Shown piece by piece: positions 44,563 through 50,716 of a stretch of 64,000 bases of DNA. Position 1 is the first letter of the stretch, and each line of letters starts with the position of its first letter. The stretch comes from an uncultured Eubacteriales bacterium (GTDB taxonomy: Bacteria; Bacillota; Clostridia; UBA1381; UMGS1253), in the NCBI GenBank assembly GCA_902492065.1, contig CABUKE010000002.1, forward strand, positions 131,548 to 195,547, in the 5' to 3' direction. The translations under genes were made by a program, and so were the position numbers. A model generated the notes under the pieces. That model ran no database searches. It was given only the letters and a program-made list of their open reading frames with translations, and had not been told where the DNA came from.

Positions 44563-44660
44563 GGTTAATTTAATACAATTTTAATAATTTGTTCTTGAAT
44601 TATTCATTCATTCATAGTATAATAAAGCTATGCAAATCAAGCAAAGGGGGGCGAAAATGT

Positions 44661-44915
44661 ATGCCTATGTATGAAACGATGAAATTTGATAATATGGAAA
44701 ACGAACGCGCAAAAGAAGTGCAGGATATTATCTGTGCGGTGTATAACGCGTTAAAGGTTAAGGGCTATAATCCAGTCAGTCAGCTTGTAGGCTACATTCT
44801 TTCCGGCGACCCGACGTATATTACAAATTACAATAATGCGAGAAGCATTATCAACCGTGTCGAACGGGATGAAATATTAGAGGAACTGGTGAAAAATTAT
44901 TTGAAAGAATTATAA
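44661..44915 (+). CDS. ireB: IreB family regulatory phosphoprotein (UPF0297)
   Basis: ATG 44661 behind AAAGGGGGG. Motifs [21 protein letters not shown] and RDEILEELV. Confidence 0.85.
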
Positions 44916-45167: not shown

Positions 45168-45195
45168 TTGACCGGAAATACTGTTTTTTTATAGT
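45168..45195 (+). promoter_or_regulatory. putative sigma-A promoter for the 45295 gene
   Basis: TTGACC, 16-nt spacer, TATAGT. Confidence 0.45.
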
Positions 45196-45238
45196 ATCAG
45201 TCTATGATGCGGCTGAAAATCGGTGACAGATTTTTTGT

Positions 45239-45266
45239 AATTTACCATAAAAGTTTTATGTAAATA
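45239..45266 (+). repeat. dif/cer-like palindromic site, copy B
   Basis: AATTTACCATAAAAGTTTTATGTAAATA. Matches the reverse complement of 50689-50716 at 24 of 28 positions. Lies 28 nt upstream of GTG 45295. Confidence 0.8.
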
Positions 45267-45294
45267 AAAAACCGAAACAAAAGAGGGGAGTCAA

Positions 45295-46047
45295 GTGCGT
45301 GCTTTATCACTTCCATATCTACCAGAACATACCATTTTCGGCGTTCTGGTAGATTTTCGAACAGACCAAAAAATTATAAAAAACATTGAAAAGCTGGGAA
45401 TTGCCGTATACCGCAGCAGGGAGGTGCAAACTGTACATCCGGCCATTCAAGGGCATGCAGATATTGGATTGTGCCATGTCGGAAAAGAAACCTTTGTATG
45501 CGAACCGACACTCTATGAATATTATAAACAGCTTTTTGATGGTTTACCCATAAACTTAATCGCAGGAAAATCGATTTTGACAAGTACATACCCGCAGGAT
45601 ATCGCATATAATGTAGCACGGATTGGAAGCTTCGCCTTCCACAACTTTTCTCATTGTGACCCAAAAATAAGCGAACAGTTTAAACGACTTGGTGTACATA
45701 TGATTACCGTTGCACAGGGGTATAGCAAATGTAATCTGTGCCCGATAAGCGAAAATGCACTTATCACGGAGGATGAATCCATTTATAAACATGCGGTAAA
45801 AGCCGGATTTGACGTATTAAAAATTGCAAAAGGATATGTCCGTTTAGATGGATTTCCTTACGGATTTTTCGGCGGCGCAAGCGGAATGCTCGGGCCAAAA
45901 TGTCTCGCTGTAACTGGCAGCCTTTGTTATCATCCAGACAGAAAGGCCATTAGTGCCTTTTGCGCCAAATATGACGTAAAAATATATGAATTATCACAGG
46001 AAATTCCGGTTGACATTGGCTCTATATTGCCAATTTTTGAAGAATAG
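45295..46047 (+). CDS. conserved hypothetical protein, DUF6873-like (guanidino-group-modifying-enzyme-type fold suspected)
   Basis: 250 aa, GTG start behind GAGGGGAG. Motifs GHADIGLCHVG, ALITED, FFGGASG. Lower G+C than its neighbours. The family name comes from memory only. Confidence 0.65.
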   Translation: MRALSLPYLPEHTIFGVLVDFRTDQKIIKNIEKLGIAVYRSREVQTVHPAIQGHADIGLCHVGKETFVCEPTLYEYYKQLFDGLPINLIAGKSILTSTYPQDIAYNVARIGSFAFHNFSHCDPKISEQFKRLGVHMITVAQGYSKCNLCPISENALITEDESIYKHAVKAGFDVLKIAKGYVRLDGFPYGFFGGASGMLGPKCLAVTGSLCYHPDRKAISAFCAKYDVKIYELSQEIPVDIGSILPIFEE

Positions 46048-46049
46048 TA

Positions 46050-46913
46050 TTGCTTAAAATTGCTTGTATAGATAGGAACACACATGCCATACTAAAATTA
46101 TCGCCGAAAGGATGTGAATGTGTGACGAAAACGGTATCTGTCGGGTTAGTGGAAGAAACAAAAATCAACTATATTACGTTTCAGCTTCATAGCCAGTCGG
46201 AGCTCATATTTTTTTGTGAAGATTTGGCCAATTATATTATAAATAAATATCACAAAAATTTTCTTACCTATATTATCCATAAGAATTATGGATATTTTAA
46301 TAGAAGTGAAAAACAGGCCGTATTTGAATTGGCGCAAAATTTATTTTCGAACATTTATTCTGTTGGTGAAAACATTGAACAGGCATTGATTCAAACGAAA
46401 TTGTACGATTATTTTACACAGGAACAAACTGATACGATTGTATTGGAAGGATTTATCCAATTTCGGCTCATAAATAGCTTCGAAGAGTTGGAATGGCTCG
46501 TTGACAGCGCAGTAGATGAATTTATGATTCAGAAAGAATATGAGAACTTTATATCCATGCTGAAACAGTTTGTCAGCGCACAGGCGCCGCTTGTGCGGCT
46601 TATTCATATCTGTCCGCAAATGAGCGGACGATATGACCTCTATGATGAAAATTTTGATGCGCTCACAGAGAGTCAGATTTTGGGGCTTGATCCGGAATCT
46701 TTTGAAGGATATGTGAATGACGATGATTTGTTGTTGTCGGCGTTAATCAGCCTTGCACCAAAAAAAATATGGATTCATGATTTTCAAAGCTTTACAAATA
46801 AGCAGCTCTATGAAACCATGCAAAAAGTATTTCCAGAACGAATTACTATATGTAAAGGATGCAAATTATGTACCAAAAATAACATTCCAATTCAGATAAA
46901 GAACAATTTATAA
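46050..46913 (+). CDS. ytxC: sporulation protein YtxC-like
   Basis: LEGFIQFRL...VDSAVDEFMIQKEYENFISMLKQFV matches the YtxC signature. Start is uncertain: TTG 46050 has no SD, while GTG 46122 lies behind AAGGA. Very AT-rich. Confidence 0.7.
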   Translation: MLKIACIDRNTHAILKLSPKGCECVTKTVSVGLVEETKINYITFQLHSQSELIFFCEDLANYIINKYHKNFLTYIIHKNYGYFNRSEKQAVFELAQNLFSNIYSVGENIEQALIQTKLYDYFTQEQTDTIVLEGFIQFRLINSFEELEWLVDSAVDEFMIQKEYENFISMLKQFVSAQAPLVRLIHICPQMSGRYDLYDENFDALTESQILGLDPESFEGYVNDDDLLLSALISLAPKKIWIHDFQSFTNKQLYETMQKVFPERITICKGCKLCTKNNIPIQIKNNL

Positions 46914-46958
46914 GAATTAGATTGATGAAGAATTACACACTCCCCCTGTTGAATACAA

Positions 46959-46992
46959 TAAAAAAGCTCCTGTAAAAATACAGGAGTTTTTT
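46959..46992. terminator. bidirectional terminator at the point of convergent transcription
   Basis: AAAAAAG-CTCCTGTA-AAAA-TACAGGAG-TTTTTT. Serves ytxC (+) and aspS (-). Confidence 0.8.
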
Positions 46993-47001
46993 ACTTTCCT
47001 A

Positions 47002-48786
47002 TTATTTTTTATCTTCTTGCGCTAGCGCAATTCCCAATTCCTTCAGTTGTTTGCTGTCAACCATATCCGGCGCATTCATCATCAGATCGGACGCATTCTG
47101 CACTTTTGGAAATGCAATCACTTCGCGGATGGAATCGGCTCCGCACAGGAGCATAACAAAACGGTCAAGTCCATATGCCATACCACCGTGCGGCGGTGTG
47201 CCATATTTGAACGCTTCCATCAGATGCCCAAAGCGTTCCCACGCTTCTTCCTTTGTGAATCCAAGCACCTCAAACATCTTTTCCTGCAATTCAGAATTAA
47301 AAATTCGGATGCTGCCGCCGCCCAGCTCACAGCCATTCAAAATAATGTCATACGCCTTAGCCCGAACCTTCCCCGGTTCACTATCCAGCAACGCTAAATC
47401 CTCGTCCATCGGCGCGGTAAACGGATGGTGCTTTGCCACATAGCGGTCTTCTTCCTCACTGTACTCGAGCAATGGAAACTCCGTCACCCAGAGCAGGTTA
47501 AATTTATTTTTATCAATCAAATCAAGCCGTCTTGCAACTTCGCAGCGAAGCGCGCCAAGTGCGTCAAATACGACATTGTCCCGGTCTGCGACGAACAGGA
47601 GGGTATCCCCTGCCTCAGCCTGCGTCCGATTAAAAATAGCCTCAAGCTCTTCCTCTTTGAAAAACTTTGCAATTGGGGACCGAACACCGTTTTCTTCGCG
47701 TATGATCCATGCAAGCCCCTTTGCCCGGTACGTCTTCACAAACTCGCCTAGGGAATCTATCTCCTTGCGGCTGAGCTTATCCGCACCACCCTTTACATTG
47801 ATCGCCCGCACGCTTCCGCCATTTGCAACTGCACCGGAAAATACGCCAAAGCCACAATCCTTTACCAAATCGCTAATGTTGACAAGCTCCAGCCCGAAGC
47901 GAGTGTCCGGCTTATCCGACCCAAAGCGTTCCATTGCCTCTTGGTACGGCATCCGCAAAAACGGCGTCTGCACCTCTATATCCAATGCTTCTTTAAACAC
48001 ACGCGCAATCATCTGTTCATTAATTGAAATGACGTCGTCAATTTCCACAAAAGACATCTCAAGGTCAATCTGGGTAAACTCCGGCTGACGGTCTGCGCGC
48101 AGGTCCTCGTCGCGGAAGCATTTTACGATTTGGAAATACCGGTCCATCCCTGCCAGCATCAGAAGCTGTTTATACTGCTGCGGCGACTGCGGAAGCGCAT
48201 AAAACTTTCCGTGGTGCACACGGCTCGGAACCAGATAGTCGCGTGCACCCTCCGGCGTACTCTTGGTCAGCATTGGCGTTTCGATTTCCAAAAAGCCGTT
48301 TTCATCATAAAAATCGCGTGCAATTTTTGCAATTTTATGCCGCAGCTCGATATTTCTCTGCATAGGGCTGCGACGTAAGTCCAGATAGCGATACTTTAGC
48401 CGCAGTTCATCTTTCACGTCGGTTTCCGCCTTAATTTCAAACGGCGGTGTTTCCGCCTTGCTCAGAATACGCAGTTCGCTTACTTTGATTTCAATCATTC
48501 CGGTCGGAAGCTTTGGATTCGGCGCGCTGCGTTTTACAATCTCGCCCGACGCTGCGATAACAAACTCATTGCGCAGGGTTGCCGCTTTTTCAAAAATTTC
48601 CGAATTGATATCTGTATCAAAAGAAAGCTGAATAATCCCGTAGCGGTCCCGCAAATCAATGAAAATAAGCGAACCAAGGTTGCGGTACACGTCTACCCAG
48701 CCCATAACCGTTACCGTTTCTCCAATGTTTGCTTCCGAAAGCTGCCCGCAGTAGTGCGTGCGTTTCATACCATGCAATGTGTCCAT
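47002..48786 (-). CDS. aspS: aspartate--tRNA ligase
   Basis: 594 aa. Class II motifs FRDEDLRADRQPEFTQID and GGGSIR. Confidence 0.97.
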   Translation of the reverse strand: MDTLHGMKRTHYCGQLSEANIGETVTVMGWVDVYRNLGSLIFIDLRDRYGIIQLSFDTDINSEIFEKAATLRNEFVIAASGEIVKRSAPNPKLPTGMIEIKVSELRILSKAETPPFEIKAETDVKDELRLKYRYLDLRRSPMQRNIELRHKIAKIARDFYDENGFLEIETPMLTKSTPEGARDYLVPSRVHHGKFYALPQSPQQYKQLLMLAGMDRYFQIVKCFRDEDLRADRQPEFTQIDLEMSFVEIDDVISINEQMIARVFKEALDIEVQTPFLRMPYQEAMERFGSDKPDTRFGLELVNISDLVKDCGFGVFSGAVANGGSVRAINVKGGADKLSRKEIDSLGEFVKTYRAKGLAWIIREENGVRSPIAKFFKEEELEAIFNRTQAEAGDTLLFVADRDNVVFDALGALRCEVARRLDLIDKNKFNLLWVTEFPLLEYSEEEDRYVAKHHPFTAPMDEDLALLDSEPGKVRAKAYDIILNGCELGGGSIRIFNSELQEKMFEVLGFTKEEAWERFGHLMEAFKYGTPPHGGMAYGLDRFVMLLCGADSIREVIAFPKVQNASDLMMNAPDMVDSKQLKELGIALAQEDKK

Positions 48787-48804
48787 TGTTCCCCATCCTA
48801 TCTT

Positions 48805-50055
48805 TTATTTTAAATAATTTTCGATTTTGTCAAGTTCCACGGTGACGCATTCGCCGTCGGCCATCCGCTTTAATACTGCTTTATTCTGTACAATTTCGTC
48901 ATCACCAAGAACGACAACATACTTGTAACCGGACTTGTCCGCATATTTCATCTGTGCTTTCAGGCTCCGGCCCATCCGATCCTTTTCACAGGATATTCCA
49001 TTTTTGCGCAAATTATAAACGAGTGTTTCTGCATATGCGTCTGCTGCCGCGCCGATATTGGCAACAAAAAGCTTCGGCAGTTCAGCCTCGCCAAAGGATA
49101 AGCCCTTCTGCTCCATTACCATAAGCAGCCGTTCCATACCCAGCGCAAAGCCAATCCCTGGCGTCGGCGCGCCGCCCAACTCTTCAATCAGCCCGTCATA
49201 GCGTCCGCCGCCGCAGACCGCAGACTGGGAACCAATATCGTTCGACGTAATTTCAAAAACAGTCTTCGTATAATAATCAAGCCCGCGCACAATGTCCGGA
49301 TCGACGGTATACACTATCCCCATGCCATCCAGCGCAGTCTTTACCGCATCGAAATGCTCCCGGCATTCGCCGCACAAATACTCAATCAGCTTTGGAGCTT
49401 TTTTTGCGAGCGCGCCGCATATCGGCGACTTACAGTCCAGAATCCGCAGCGGATTGCGCTCCAGCCTGCTTTTACATGTATCACAAAGCTCGTCGTAATG
49501 CTCCTTAAAATACGCAATCAAAACCTCATTATATGCTTTCCGGCATTCGGGACATCCAATCGAATTGATATTCAGCGCCAATTCCTGAAGTCCCAGCTCG
49601 CTCAAAAACAGCATTGCCAGGGAAATGATCTCCGCATCAACTGTAGGTGCCTGCGACCCGAACACCTCTACGCCAAACTGGTGAAACTCACGCAATCGTC
49701 CAGCCTGTGGCTTTTCATAACGGAAGCAGGGAATCAGATAAAACAATTTGACCGGCAAGGGCTGTGCACCCAAATTATGCTCAATGTACGCACGAGCAGC
49801 AGAAGCAGTTCCCTCCGGACGAAGTGTGATACTGCGGTTGCCTTTATCCTCAAAGGTGTACATCTGCTTTTCCACAACGTCAGTCGTATCCCCTACACCC
49901 CGCAAAAACAGCTCCGTATGCTCAAAGGTCGGCGTGCGGATTTCACCATATCCGAACCGGCGGCACAAATCGCGCGCCCGTTCCTCAATGTATTGCCATT
50001 TATAACTGTCAGATGCCAAAATATCGTTTGTGCCTCTCGGCGCTTTTGTCAGCAT
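48805..50055 (-). CDS. hisS: histidine--tRNA ligase
   Basis: Start at 50055 (MLTKAPRGTNDIL) behind GGAGGAG; track ORF extends to 50076. Motif RYEKPQAGRLREFHQ. Confidence 0.96.
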   Translation of the reverse strand: MLTKAPRGTNDILASDSYKWQYIEERARDLCRRFGYGEIRTPTFEHTELFLRGVGDTTDVVEKQMYTFEDKGNRSITLRPEGTASAARAYIEHNLGAQPLPVKLFYLIPCFRYEKPQAGRLREFHQFGVEVFGSQAPTVDAEIISLAMLFLSELGLQELALNINSIGCPECRKAYNEVLIAYFKEHYDELCDTCKSRLERNPLRILDCKSPICGALAKKAPKLIEYLCGECREHFDAVKTALDGMGIVYTVDPDIVRGLDYYTKTVFEITSNDIGSQSAVCGGGRYDGLIEELGGAPTPGIGFALGMERLLMVMEQKGLSFGEAELPKLFVANIGAAADAYAETLVYNLRKNGISCEKDRMGRSLKAQMKYADKSGYKYVVVLGDDEIVQNKAVLKRMADGECVTVELDKIENYLK

Positions 50056-50145
50056 GTATACTCCTCCAAATTCCAATTCACCATATGCTTACGTAACAAG
50101 GAAACTCCCCCAAATGGGAGAGTTTACAAGTAAATGCTCTTTATT

Positions 50146-50174
50146 ATTGTATCGTCATTTTCTGCCAAAGTCAA
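50146..50174 (-). promoter_or_regulatory. sigma-A type promoter for hisS-aspS
   Basis: On the - strand: TTGACT, 17-nt spacer, TACAAT. The leader is only about 85 nt. Confidence 0.55.
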
Positions 50175-50188
50175 GGCTTTTTTGCGTG

Positions 50189-50674
50189 TTATCGAGGATA
50201 ACACTTTTCATAATCTACCAAAGTCATGCCTTTATAACTTGTCACGTGCCGTCCTGTTTGGACATAGCTAAGTTTTTCGTATAAATGACAGTTTCCCGCT
50301 TCCTGCAAGATGGTATCTAAGCGCCAACATCTCACAGCAGGATAAAGCAGTTCAAGCTTTCGCATTGCCTCCTGTGCGATTCCCCTGTTTTGATACTCCG
50401 GCAGAACACACAGTGCGCTCACCTGACAACTTTTATCTCGCCCTTCGTGGATTCTGACACAACCGGCAAGCCTTCCTCCAACAAGAAAACCATATGCGGC
50501 AGTTCCGCTTCGGCAAAGTTTTTGGAGTATTACTGCCTCTGTTTCCATAGCGGGGCTTGTATCGTAGTCCTTATACTTTTCCAGCAACGGTAAAAAGGCG
50601 GCCTGCTGGATATGATATATGTTTGAGACGTCCTTTTCCGTTAGCTTAATAAGCTCCAAGTCCAAATCTAACAC
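50189..50674 (-). CDS. GNAT family N-acetyltransferase
   Basis: 161 aa. Acetyl-CoA motif QNRGIAQEAM. TTG 50665 behind GAGGTG is the likelier start. Confidence 0.8.
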   Translation of the reverse strand: MLDLDLELIKLTEKDVSNIYHIQQAAFLPLLEKYKDYDTSPAMETEAVILQKLCRSGTAAYGFLVGGRLAGCVRIHEGRDKSCQVSALCVLPEYQNRGIAQEAMRKLELLYPAVRCWRLDTILQEAGNCHLYEKLSYVQTGRHVTSYKGMTLVDYEKCYPR

Positions 50675-50688
50675 CTCAAAAGCTGCTT

Positions 50689-50716
50689 TATTTACATAAT
50701 ATAATTATGGTAAATT
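50689..50716 (-). repeat. dif/cer-like palindromic site, copy A
   Basis: Reads AATTTACCATAATTATATTATGTAAATA on the - strand. Overlaps the engB stop codon by 2 nt and lies 14-24 nt upstream of the GNAT start. Confidence 0.8.

Follow-up and report, generated by a model that had tools for sequence, protein, structure and literature searches.

At the presumed replication terminus of an uncultured human-gut Clostridia bacterium, close to the GTDB 'Candidatus Aphodoplasma', two copies of a short dif-like palindrome face each other across the point at which gene orientation and GC skew change together. These copies, sites A and B, lie on a stretch of 64,000 nucleotides of contig CABUKE010000002.1 (assembly GCA_902492065.1), hereafter the window. 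Both are kept in place and orientation across five species, and both belong to a family of sites with a 5-bp centre (N5 sites) that recurs across the Firmicutes, is polarised relative to replication and seems associated with the terminus. To judge from the arms, XerD is most likely the protein that binds them. On balance we lean towards reading the pair as terminus-flanking, non-recombining XerD sites of the type named XDS in Bacillus subtilis, a likeness that holds by class description; by analogy, their function would be the unloading of SMC.

Sites A and B and the gene-orientation switch

The two sites read as follows:

45239–45266, plus strand: site B, AATTTACCATAA-AAGTT-TTATGTAAATA, dif-like, with two XerD-type arms around a 5-bp centre
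50689–50716, minus strand: site A, AATTTACCATAA-TTATA-TTATGTAAATA on the minus strand, the element of site B inverted, overlapping the stop codon of engB

Re-reading the window confirmed the coordinates and readings given for both copies in a preliminary description of this DNA. Across the whole window, the pattern ATTTACCATAA-N5-TTATGTAAAT with up to three mismatches matches only at 45240–45265 (+) and 50715–50690 (−), which upholds the earlier statement that the intergenic regions hold no other full copy. Single half-arms with one mismatch are likewise essentially restricted to the two sites, and in 100 shuffles that preserved dinucleotides no match to the pattern arose (0 expected by chance). 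The copies differ at four positions, all of them, as had been claimed, within the 5-nt centre (AAGTT in B, TTATA in A), and their identity reaches slightly beyond the stated arms, over TAATTTACCATAA ... TTATGTAAATAAA. The outer boxes are set 14 bp apart, the spacing of two XerD arms around a 6-bp centre, and the inner boxes 5 bp apart. An 'extra C' that had been counted as part of the motif has to be given up: the position is occupied by C, A, T or G in relatives, and the motif is therefore TTTAC-N-ATAA-N5-TTAT-GTAAA, whose built-in asymmetry (TTTAC-N-ATAA on one side, TTAT-GTAAA on the other) is conserved.

Between the two sites the orientation of the genes changes, and the features that define this switch are:

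46914–47001, no strand: convergence point of ytxC (+) and aspS (−), where GC skew passes from positive to negative; presumed replication terminus
46961–46992, no strand: bidirectional intrinsic-terminator hairpin AAAAAGCTCCTGTAAAAATACAGGAGTTTTTT, exactly at the ytxC/aspS convergence point
44589–44915, plus strand: IreB, among the last genes of the plus-strand left side
45295–46047, plus strand: DUF6873, between site B and ytxC
46050–46913, plus strand: YtxC, the last plus-strand gene before the switch

The ytxC gene ends at 46913 and aspS, read from the other strand, at 47002; to the right of the switch, the minus-strand genes are aspS, hisS, a GNAT acetyltransferase, the GTPase EngB, lon, clpX and clpP. 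GC skew is about +0.13 over the first 46 kb of the window and about −0.16 after it, and the signs persist on the source contig for 8 kb more leftward and 10 kb more rightward, giving positive skew for ~54 kb to the left of the switch and negative skew for ~27 kb to its right. Skew and gene orientation thus switch at the same place, at about 46.9–47.0 kb, bracketed by site B at 1.7 kb and site A at 3.7 kb from the convergence point. Replication termini are recognised by just this pairing of a positive-to-negative skew change with converging genes. Each site lies on the local leading strand of its own replichore, with its TTATGTAAA arm on the terminus side. Two suggestions of the preliminary description therefore hold: that the copies form an inverted pair around the orientation flip, which the map of open reading frames (ORFs) confirms with a change of skew sign at the same place, and that they are tied to the terminus, for which skew switch and gene convergence speak together with the same pattern in Ca. 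Aphodoplasma, where skew again turns from positive to negative and genes converge between the sites.

Conservation extends beyond Ca. Aphodoplasma. In the window species and in four further species that have kept the gene order, the motif pair is present at the same two places and inverted; the DUF6873 proteins of the further species are 49–69% identical to that of the window (against Ca. Aphodoplasma, identity is 80–90% for IreB, aspS, hisS, engB and lon, and 48–50% for DUF6873 and YtxC). The ten sites of the five species read TTTAC-N-ATAA-N5-TTATGT(A/T)(A/G)A, with the N position and the centre free, and stand out in alignments as islands of identity inside diverging intergenic DNA, a pattern that bears out the earlier proposal of arms under selection around a drifting spacer. 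In each of the five species the centres of A and B are unequal. Site A overlaps or directly follows the engB stop codon in all five, and in the relatives it is found upstream of a conserved hisS promoter, at 24–70 nt.

Insertions next to the sites were noted on both sides of the pair. The GNAT gene (50189–50674, minus strand), between site A and hisS, occurs in the window species only, where it has been inserted 24 nt past site A with no promoter in between; in the four relatives engB is followed by site A and then directly by the hisS promoter, with no GNAT gene. The insertion of GNAT removed spacer and promoter-proximal DNA and left site A intact. In the closest other species (L008:9282-9803 / L009:3685-4206), IreB and site B are separated by an inserted DUF6886 gene, which leaves site B and its distance to DUF6873 unaltered.

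A family of sites with a 5-bp centre

When 185,579 species genomes were scanned with TTTACNATAA-N5-TTATGTAAA, at least 120 stretches matched; the counts and percentages given below for the family refer to the matches listed. Firmicutes account for 112 of 120 stretches, with Bacillaceae and relatives, Lachnospiraceae (many of them Blautia), Oscillospiraceae and other Clostridia represented. The family consensus is R-TTTAC-N-ATAA-TWATA-TTATGTAAA-CTA, 27 bp long, with TWATA as centre and a purine preceding the motif in 88% of sites. Just outside the search pattern, the free positions +1, +2 and +3 are clearly non-random, with C, T and A in 63, 53 and 67% of sites, and the right-hand side therefore amounts to a completed dif XerD arm, TTATGTAAACT. 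An independent sample of loci, fetched through the DUF6873 protein instead of the motif and searched with a relaxed regular expression that left the outer left arm free, yielded 45 N5, two N6 and one N7 sites, all credible matches carrying a left arm of the TTTAC/GTTAC type. The 5-nt register, singled out as unusual in the preliminary description, is genuine and defines a whole family.

The family is polar with respect to replication, its members being mostly on the leading strand and directed at the terminus. With the skew of the 3-kb flanks read in the orientation of the site, sites with positive skew on both sides outnumber those with negative skew on both sides by 34 to 8 (p = 3e-5), and where skew flips at the site it does so from positive to negative in 15 cases and from negative to positive in three (p = 4e-3); both window sites share this polarity. 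Such positive-to-negative flips are seen at 15 of the 80 scored sites, and further members lie well away from skew flips. Among 89 intergenic sites, 28 fall between convergent genes, several Lachnospiraceae having one N5 site in such a position, and many, like site A, are placed right at the stop codon of an upstream gene that has their own orientation. Multiple copies are present in many genomes (2–5 in several), often co-oriented and separated by anything from a few hundred bp to several kb.

Several members can be placed relative to dif or to the chromosome as a whole. In Fredinandcohnia humi (L031) the N5 site is accompanied by a canonical 28-bp dif at a distance of 583 bp, and in Vagococcus proximus (L122) by one at 3.9 kb; both N5 sites share the orientation of dif and are directed at it. 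The B. inaquosorum site falls between the orthologues of yngE and nrnB/yngD, genes that presumably lie within ~10 kb of dif on the B. subtilis map; a near-identical site in B. tequilensis (L127) is probably orthologous. The Brevibacillus fortis site stands at 51.0% of a complete chromosome, and that of a second large record at 54%. Bacillaceae members have unrelated neighbour genes. The N5 family is dif-like but is not dif; it is multi-copy and polar and seems associated with the terminus.

Some matches are arranged in ways of their own. Direct-orientation pairs only 37–155 bp apart occur in Clostridia and Bacillaceae (L089:3146-3219, L091:1737-1915, L072:3029-3089). In the metagenome-assembled genome (MAG) JAZNVK01 of a Faecousia sp. 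(Oscillospiraceae), an identical 24-mer, TTTACCATAATATAATTATGTAAA, sits inside a repeat unit of 262–361 bp (L026:3988-4684; also L027, L042, L048, L049, L063 and L120) with GC-rich hairpins and conserved flanks, present in at least 12 copies, some of them arrayed in tandem and many close to the end of a contig; the unit may represent a natural array of XerD-type sites, an Xer-exploiting cassette or a mobile element. The exact pattern was also met in 34 stretches of IMG/VR viral contigs (L216–L249), including several recurrent sequence families with a dif-like 'CT' extension, e.g. cccacccaa-TTTACAATAAAGTTGTTATGTAAA-ctag, which may mark junctions of prophage and host or places of Xer-dependent integration.

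Comparison with XerD sites, dif and other terminus systems

Xer sites have centres of 6–8 bp (6 in dif, 8 in cer). The dif site, 28 bp long, is where XerC and XerD resolve chromosome dimers under the control of FtsK. The canonical dif sequences used for comparison come from the supplement of Kono 2011: B. subtilis dif is ACTTCCTAGAATATATATTATGTAAACT, at 1,942,542, the canonical Firmicutes dif has the form nnTTCCnATAA-N6-TTATGTAAACT, and TTATGTAAACT is the dif XerD arm in B. subtilis, Staphylococcus aureus and Listeria. The right arm of sites A and B, with its flank, matches this arm, in keeping with the dif/Xer-like character first attributed to them: the window arm TTATGTAAATA agrees with the phylum XerD-arm consensus at 9 of 11 positions, and the sites' XerD arm is identical over 9–11 nt to the dif of B. 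subtilis and S. aureus. The sites further resemble dif in the adjoining part of the centre (TATA-TTATGTAAA), in the inner boxes ATAA and TTAT and in lying, like dif, at the terminus and close to the shift point of GC skew. They depart from it in four respects. The gap between ATAA and TTAT is 5 bp in both copies and in all ten sites of the five species, whereas canonical Firmicutes dif, with two 11-bp arms, has 6 bp; the left outer box is TTTAC, XerD-like and the mirror of GTAAA, where dif has CTTCC; dif is single-copy on its chromosome, whereas here two copies lie 5.4 kb apart, also in four other species, in a family that is itself multi-copy; and N5 sites co-exist with a canonical dif in other Firmicutes (L031, L122). 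The complement of the left arm, TTATnGTAAAT, has what we take to be the register of proteobacterial XerD arms (cer, E. coli dif).

A second class of terminus site with an XerD arm is XDS, for which Karaboja et al. (2021, Mol Cell 81:756) is reportedly the source. In passages of PMC11840125, PMC10945525 and PMC11894783 that cite Karaboja 2021, the XDS of B. subtilis are described as dif-like, XerD-specific sites of the terminus region at which XerD unloads SMC, independently of XerC, of dif and of catalysis. As a class they are dif-like with an XerD arm, several per genome, in or near the terminus and distinct from dif; N5 sites appear alike at the level of this class description rather than of compared motifs, and sites A and B in particular are dif-like, carry an XerD arm and are not dif. 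Within the B. subtilis group, too, the N5 family is represented, beside the dif region. What sets the present case apart is the number of sites, two only, their close inverted pairing around the skew switch, the strong conservation of the second (left) arm, and a host from an uncultured Clostridia lineage. The preliminary description had offered an undescribed terminus element as one possibility: the idea comes near the mark, but the 'undescribed' does not hold, since XDS are known in B. subtilis.

Two further systems mark the terminus by other means. The Ter sites bound by RTP in B. subtilis or by Tus in E. coli are asymmetric and inverted about the terminus, as sites A and B are, but the latter are Xer-like in sequence and no terminator-protein gene was seen nearby. 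In the part of PMC10945525 that treats matS and MatP of E. coli, matS sites are short, palindromic sites of the terminus domain that exclude or unload an SMC-type complex. Sites A and B resemble matS as short palindromic sites marking the terminus; they are unrelated to it in sequence and protein, and matS is symmetric and not polar.

Sites A and B have two XerD-type arms (TTATnGTAAAT and TTATGTAAAT) around a centre 1 bp shorter than that of dif; if they are XDS-type sites, XerD bound there would unload SMC-ScpAB arriving from the origin, as in B. subtilis. As both sites occupy the leading strand and turn their XerD arm to the terminus, whatever travels from the origin along either chromosome arm (SMC, FtsK/SpoIIIE or the replication forks) would run into an identical face of a site shortly before the terminus. 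Recombination between A and B would be prevented by the 5-bp centre and by the difference between their centres, a block that we infer from the 6–8 bp known for Xer centres together with the homology requirement of tyrosine recombinases.

Several observations weigh against this reading. Neither a xer nor an ftsK gene is present in the annotated part of the window (~42.6–55.3 kb). No canonical dif was found in ~82 kb around the skew switch (the window and its extensions), where scans with B. subtilis and E. coli dif, with relaxed N4–N8 regular expressions and with the XerD arm alone matched only sites A and B. In Firmicutes, gene orientation is a confounder of any orientation measured against skew. 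A gene-linked role is also thinkable: site B is 30–37 nt from the start of DUF6873 in the window and in L009, L010 and L012, and an N5 site stands directly upstream of DUF6873 in L023, L030, L089, L092, L106 and L169–L194 (common human-gut species).

To our knowledge, nothing is known of termination, SMC unloading or dimer resolution in uncultured gut Clostridia. Should the sites bind XerD, they would provide a precise, sequence-level marker of the terminus in these bacteria, and would extend the idea of XerD acting at XDS from Bacillus and Staphylococcus to the Clostridia. The family consensus, the 5-bp centre and the polarity make up a testable prediction for culturable Lachnospiraceae or Oscillospiraceae, and the motif may help to orient MAG contigs around the terminus. 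XDS-type sites have already been described in B. subtilis; it is the family-wide 5-bp architecture and its polarity that deserve experiment.

The sites may instead have to do with chromosome dimers. One or both could be the dimer-resolution site of this clade, a variant of dif that might bind an XerD-type homodimer and recombine between sister copies only. We consider this rather unlikely. In its favour, the skew switch is the place of these dif-like sites; XerD-like arms on both sides recall single-recombinase systems; unequal centres would bar a harmful A x B inversion and permit A x A or B x B exchange; and several Lachnospiraceae have one N5 site between convergent genes. Since the ~82 kb searched hold no canonical dif, a role in dimer resolution, in addition or instead, is conceivable in this clade. 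Against it stand the inner boxes, 5 bp apart where Xer centres have 6–8 bp, the multi-copy nature of a family found beside canonical dif in L031 and L122, and the toleration of tandem direct copies with identical centres (L089, L026). The narrower proposal of the preliminary description, one dif and a decoy, retains the missing canonical dif in its favour and is weakened by the same facts of copy number, 5-bp centre and co-existing dif.

A broader scenario, unlikely in our estimation, joins several of these elements. N5 would be a Firmicutes-wide asymmetric terminus element, with its orientation under selection and its copies converging on dif or the terminus. Canonical dif would have given way, in the Aphodoplasma-like clade, to a minimal pair that would alone define the terminus, stopping or unloading SMC, FtsK/SpoIIIE or forks in a directional manner, possibly with XerD-only dimer resolution on a 5-bp centre.

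Quite improbable, we think, is a polar fork trap, or binding by a terminus protein other than XerD, be it a counterpart of RTP/Ter or of Tus/Ter or something that halts FtsK/SpoIIIE. The geometry of a pair inverted about the terminus fits this equally well, as do the conserved asymmetry of the element and the polarisation of the family relative to replication. The arms, on the other hand, share 9–11 nt with the dif of B. subtilis and S. aureus, and because the sequence is an XerD arm, the known binder is the simplest assumption; moreover, no gene resembling RTP or Tus was noticed in their vicinity, and the family also occurs far from skew flips.

Transcription signals, DUF6873 and the segment between the sites

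The promoter nearest to site B is:

45168–45195, plus strand: sigma-A-like promoter TTGACC-16-TATAGT of DUF6873-ytxC, conserved in relatives; context only

That the sites serve as a shared transcriptional operator, or as a transcribed regulatory hairpin, for DUF6873-ytxC and GNAT/hisS-aspS is very doubtful. Both are found just 5' of genes in the same relative orientation, site B keeps its short distance to DUF6873 in four species and has counterparts upstream of DUF6873 in other lineages, and it lies in the transcribed DUF6873 leader, being ~45 nt downstream of the conserved promoter. The preliminary description, which had raised this reading, placed both copies 14–28 nt upstream of the next gene; this is true of the window species and fails in relatives that lack GNAT, where site A adjoins the engB stop, ~170 nt away from hisS. 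Its fixed landmark is that stop codon; its distance from the hisS promoter varies, and here it lies 24 nt from GNAT. With B downstream of one promoter and A upstream of another at varying distance, the two have no common position relative to transcription signals. Nor do the family's other members behave as operators of these genes, given unrelated neighbours in Bacillaceae, 28 of the 89 intergenic sites between convergent genes, and ~55 DUF6873 homologue loci without a site. As RNA, the palindrome is predicted to form a hairpin of only −3.5 kcal/mol; its arms are invariant rather than covarying, show no compensatory changes and belong to no Rfam family. The site was also considered as a sigma-70 promoter and rejected, the hexamer spacing being unfit and the promoters mapping upstream of B and, in relatives, downstream of A.

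The tie to DUF6873 is a partial one. An obligate link as a general rule was rejected, the site being absent from most of 80 metagenome homologue loci; most of the ~55 loci without an N5 site also lack a skew flip, and in the lineages beyond the window's own relatives that do carry one, DUF6873 is only ~40% identical to that of the window. These observations fit a DUF6873-ytxC operon that was ancestrally terminus-proximal. In the common human-gut species (L170 etc.) the site is present with no skew flip within 10 kb, which leaves room for a gene-linked role.

The last reading, a 5.4-kb segment with sites A and B as its ends that can be inverted site-specifically or was inverted in the past, is almost certainly wrong: the repeats are inverted and an inversion would keep the genes co-oriented with replication, but DUF6873 lies beside IreB in all seven window-species assemblies shown, the two assemblies that span both sites are arranged as in the four other species (one arrangement, therefore, across five species), the centres of A and B are unequal in every species, the skew between the sites agrees with the present orientation, and no recombinase gene is found among the annotated ORFs (~42.6–55.3 kb).

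A few observations concern the sequence around the sites and their variants. The whole window was scanned for Rfam families and tRNAs without a match, and accordingly no T-box was detected before hisS/aspS, genes that are T-box-regulated in Bacillus; a sigma-70-like promoter, TTGACT-17-TACAAT, was noted upstream of hisS-aspS (promoter 50174–50146; region 48805–50180, minus strand). Upstream of site B (45168–45238, plus strand), the leader blocks CAGTCTATGA and GGTGAC are conserved in close relatives. Within the common human-gut species, L169 and L170 diverge ~5 kb downstream, a difference that may be a strain rearrangement, and the site itself varies (L173:9934-9960 and L182:4356-4383): one variant has a 6-nt centre, on a contig at 1.4x coverage, and may be a sequencing error, and the other, without the N base, is a perfect palindrome, GTTTACATAA-AAATA-TTATGTAAAC.

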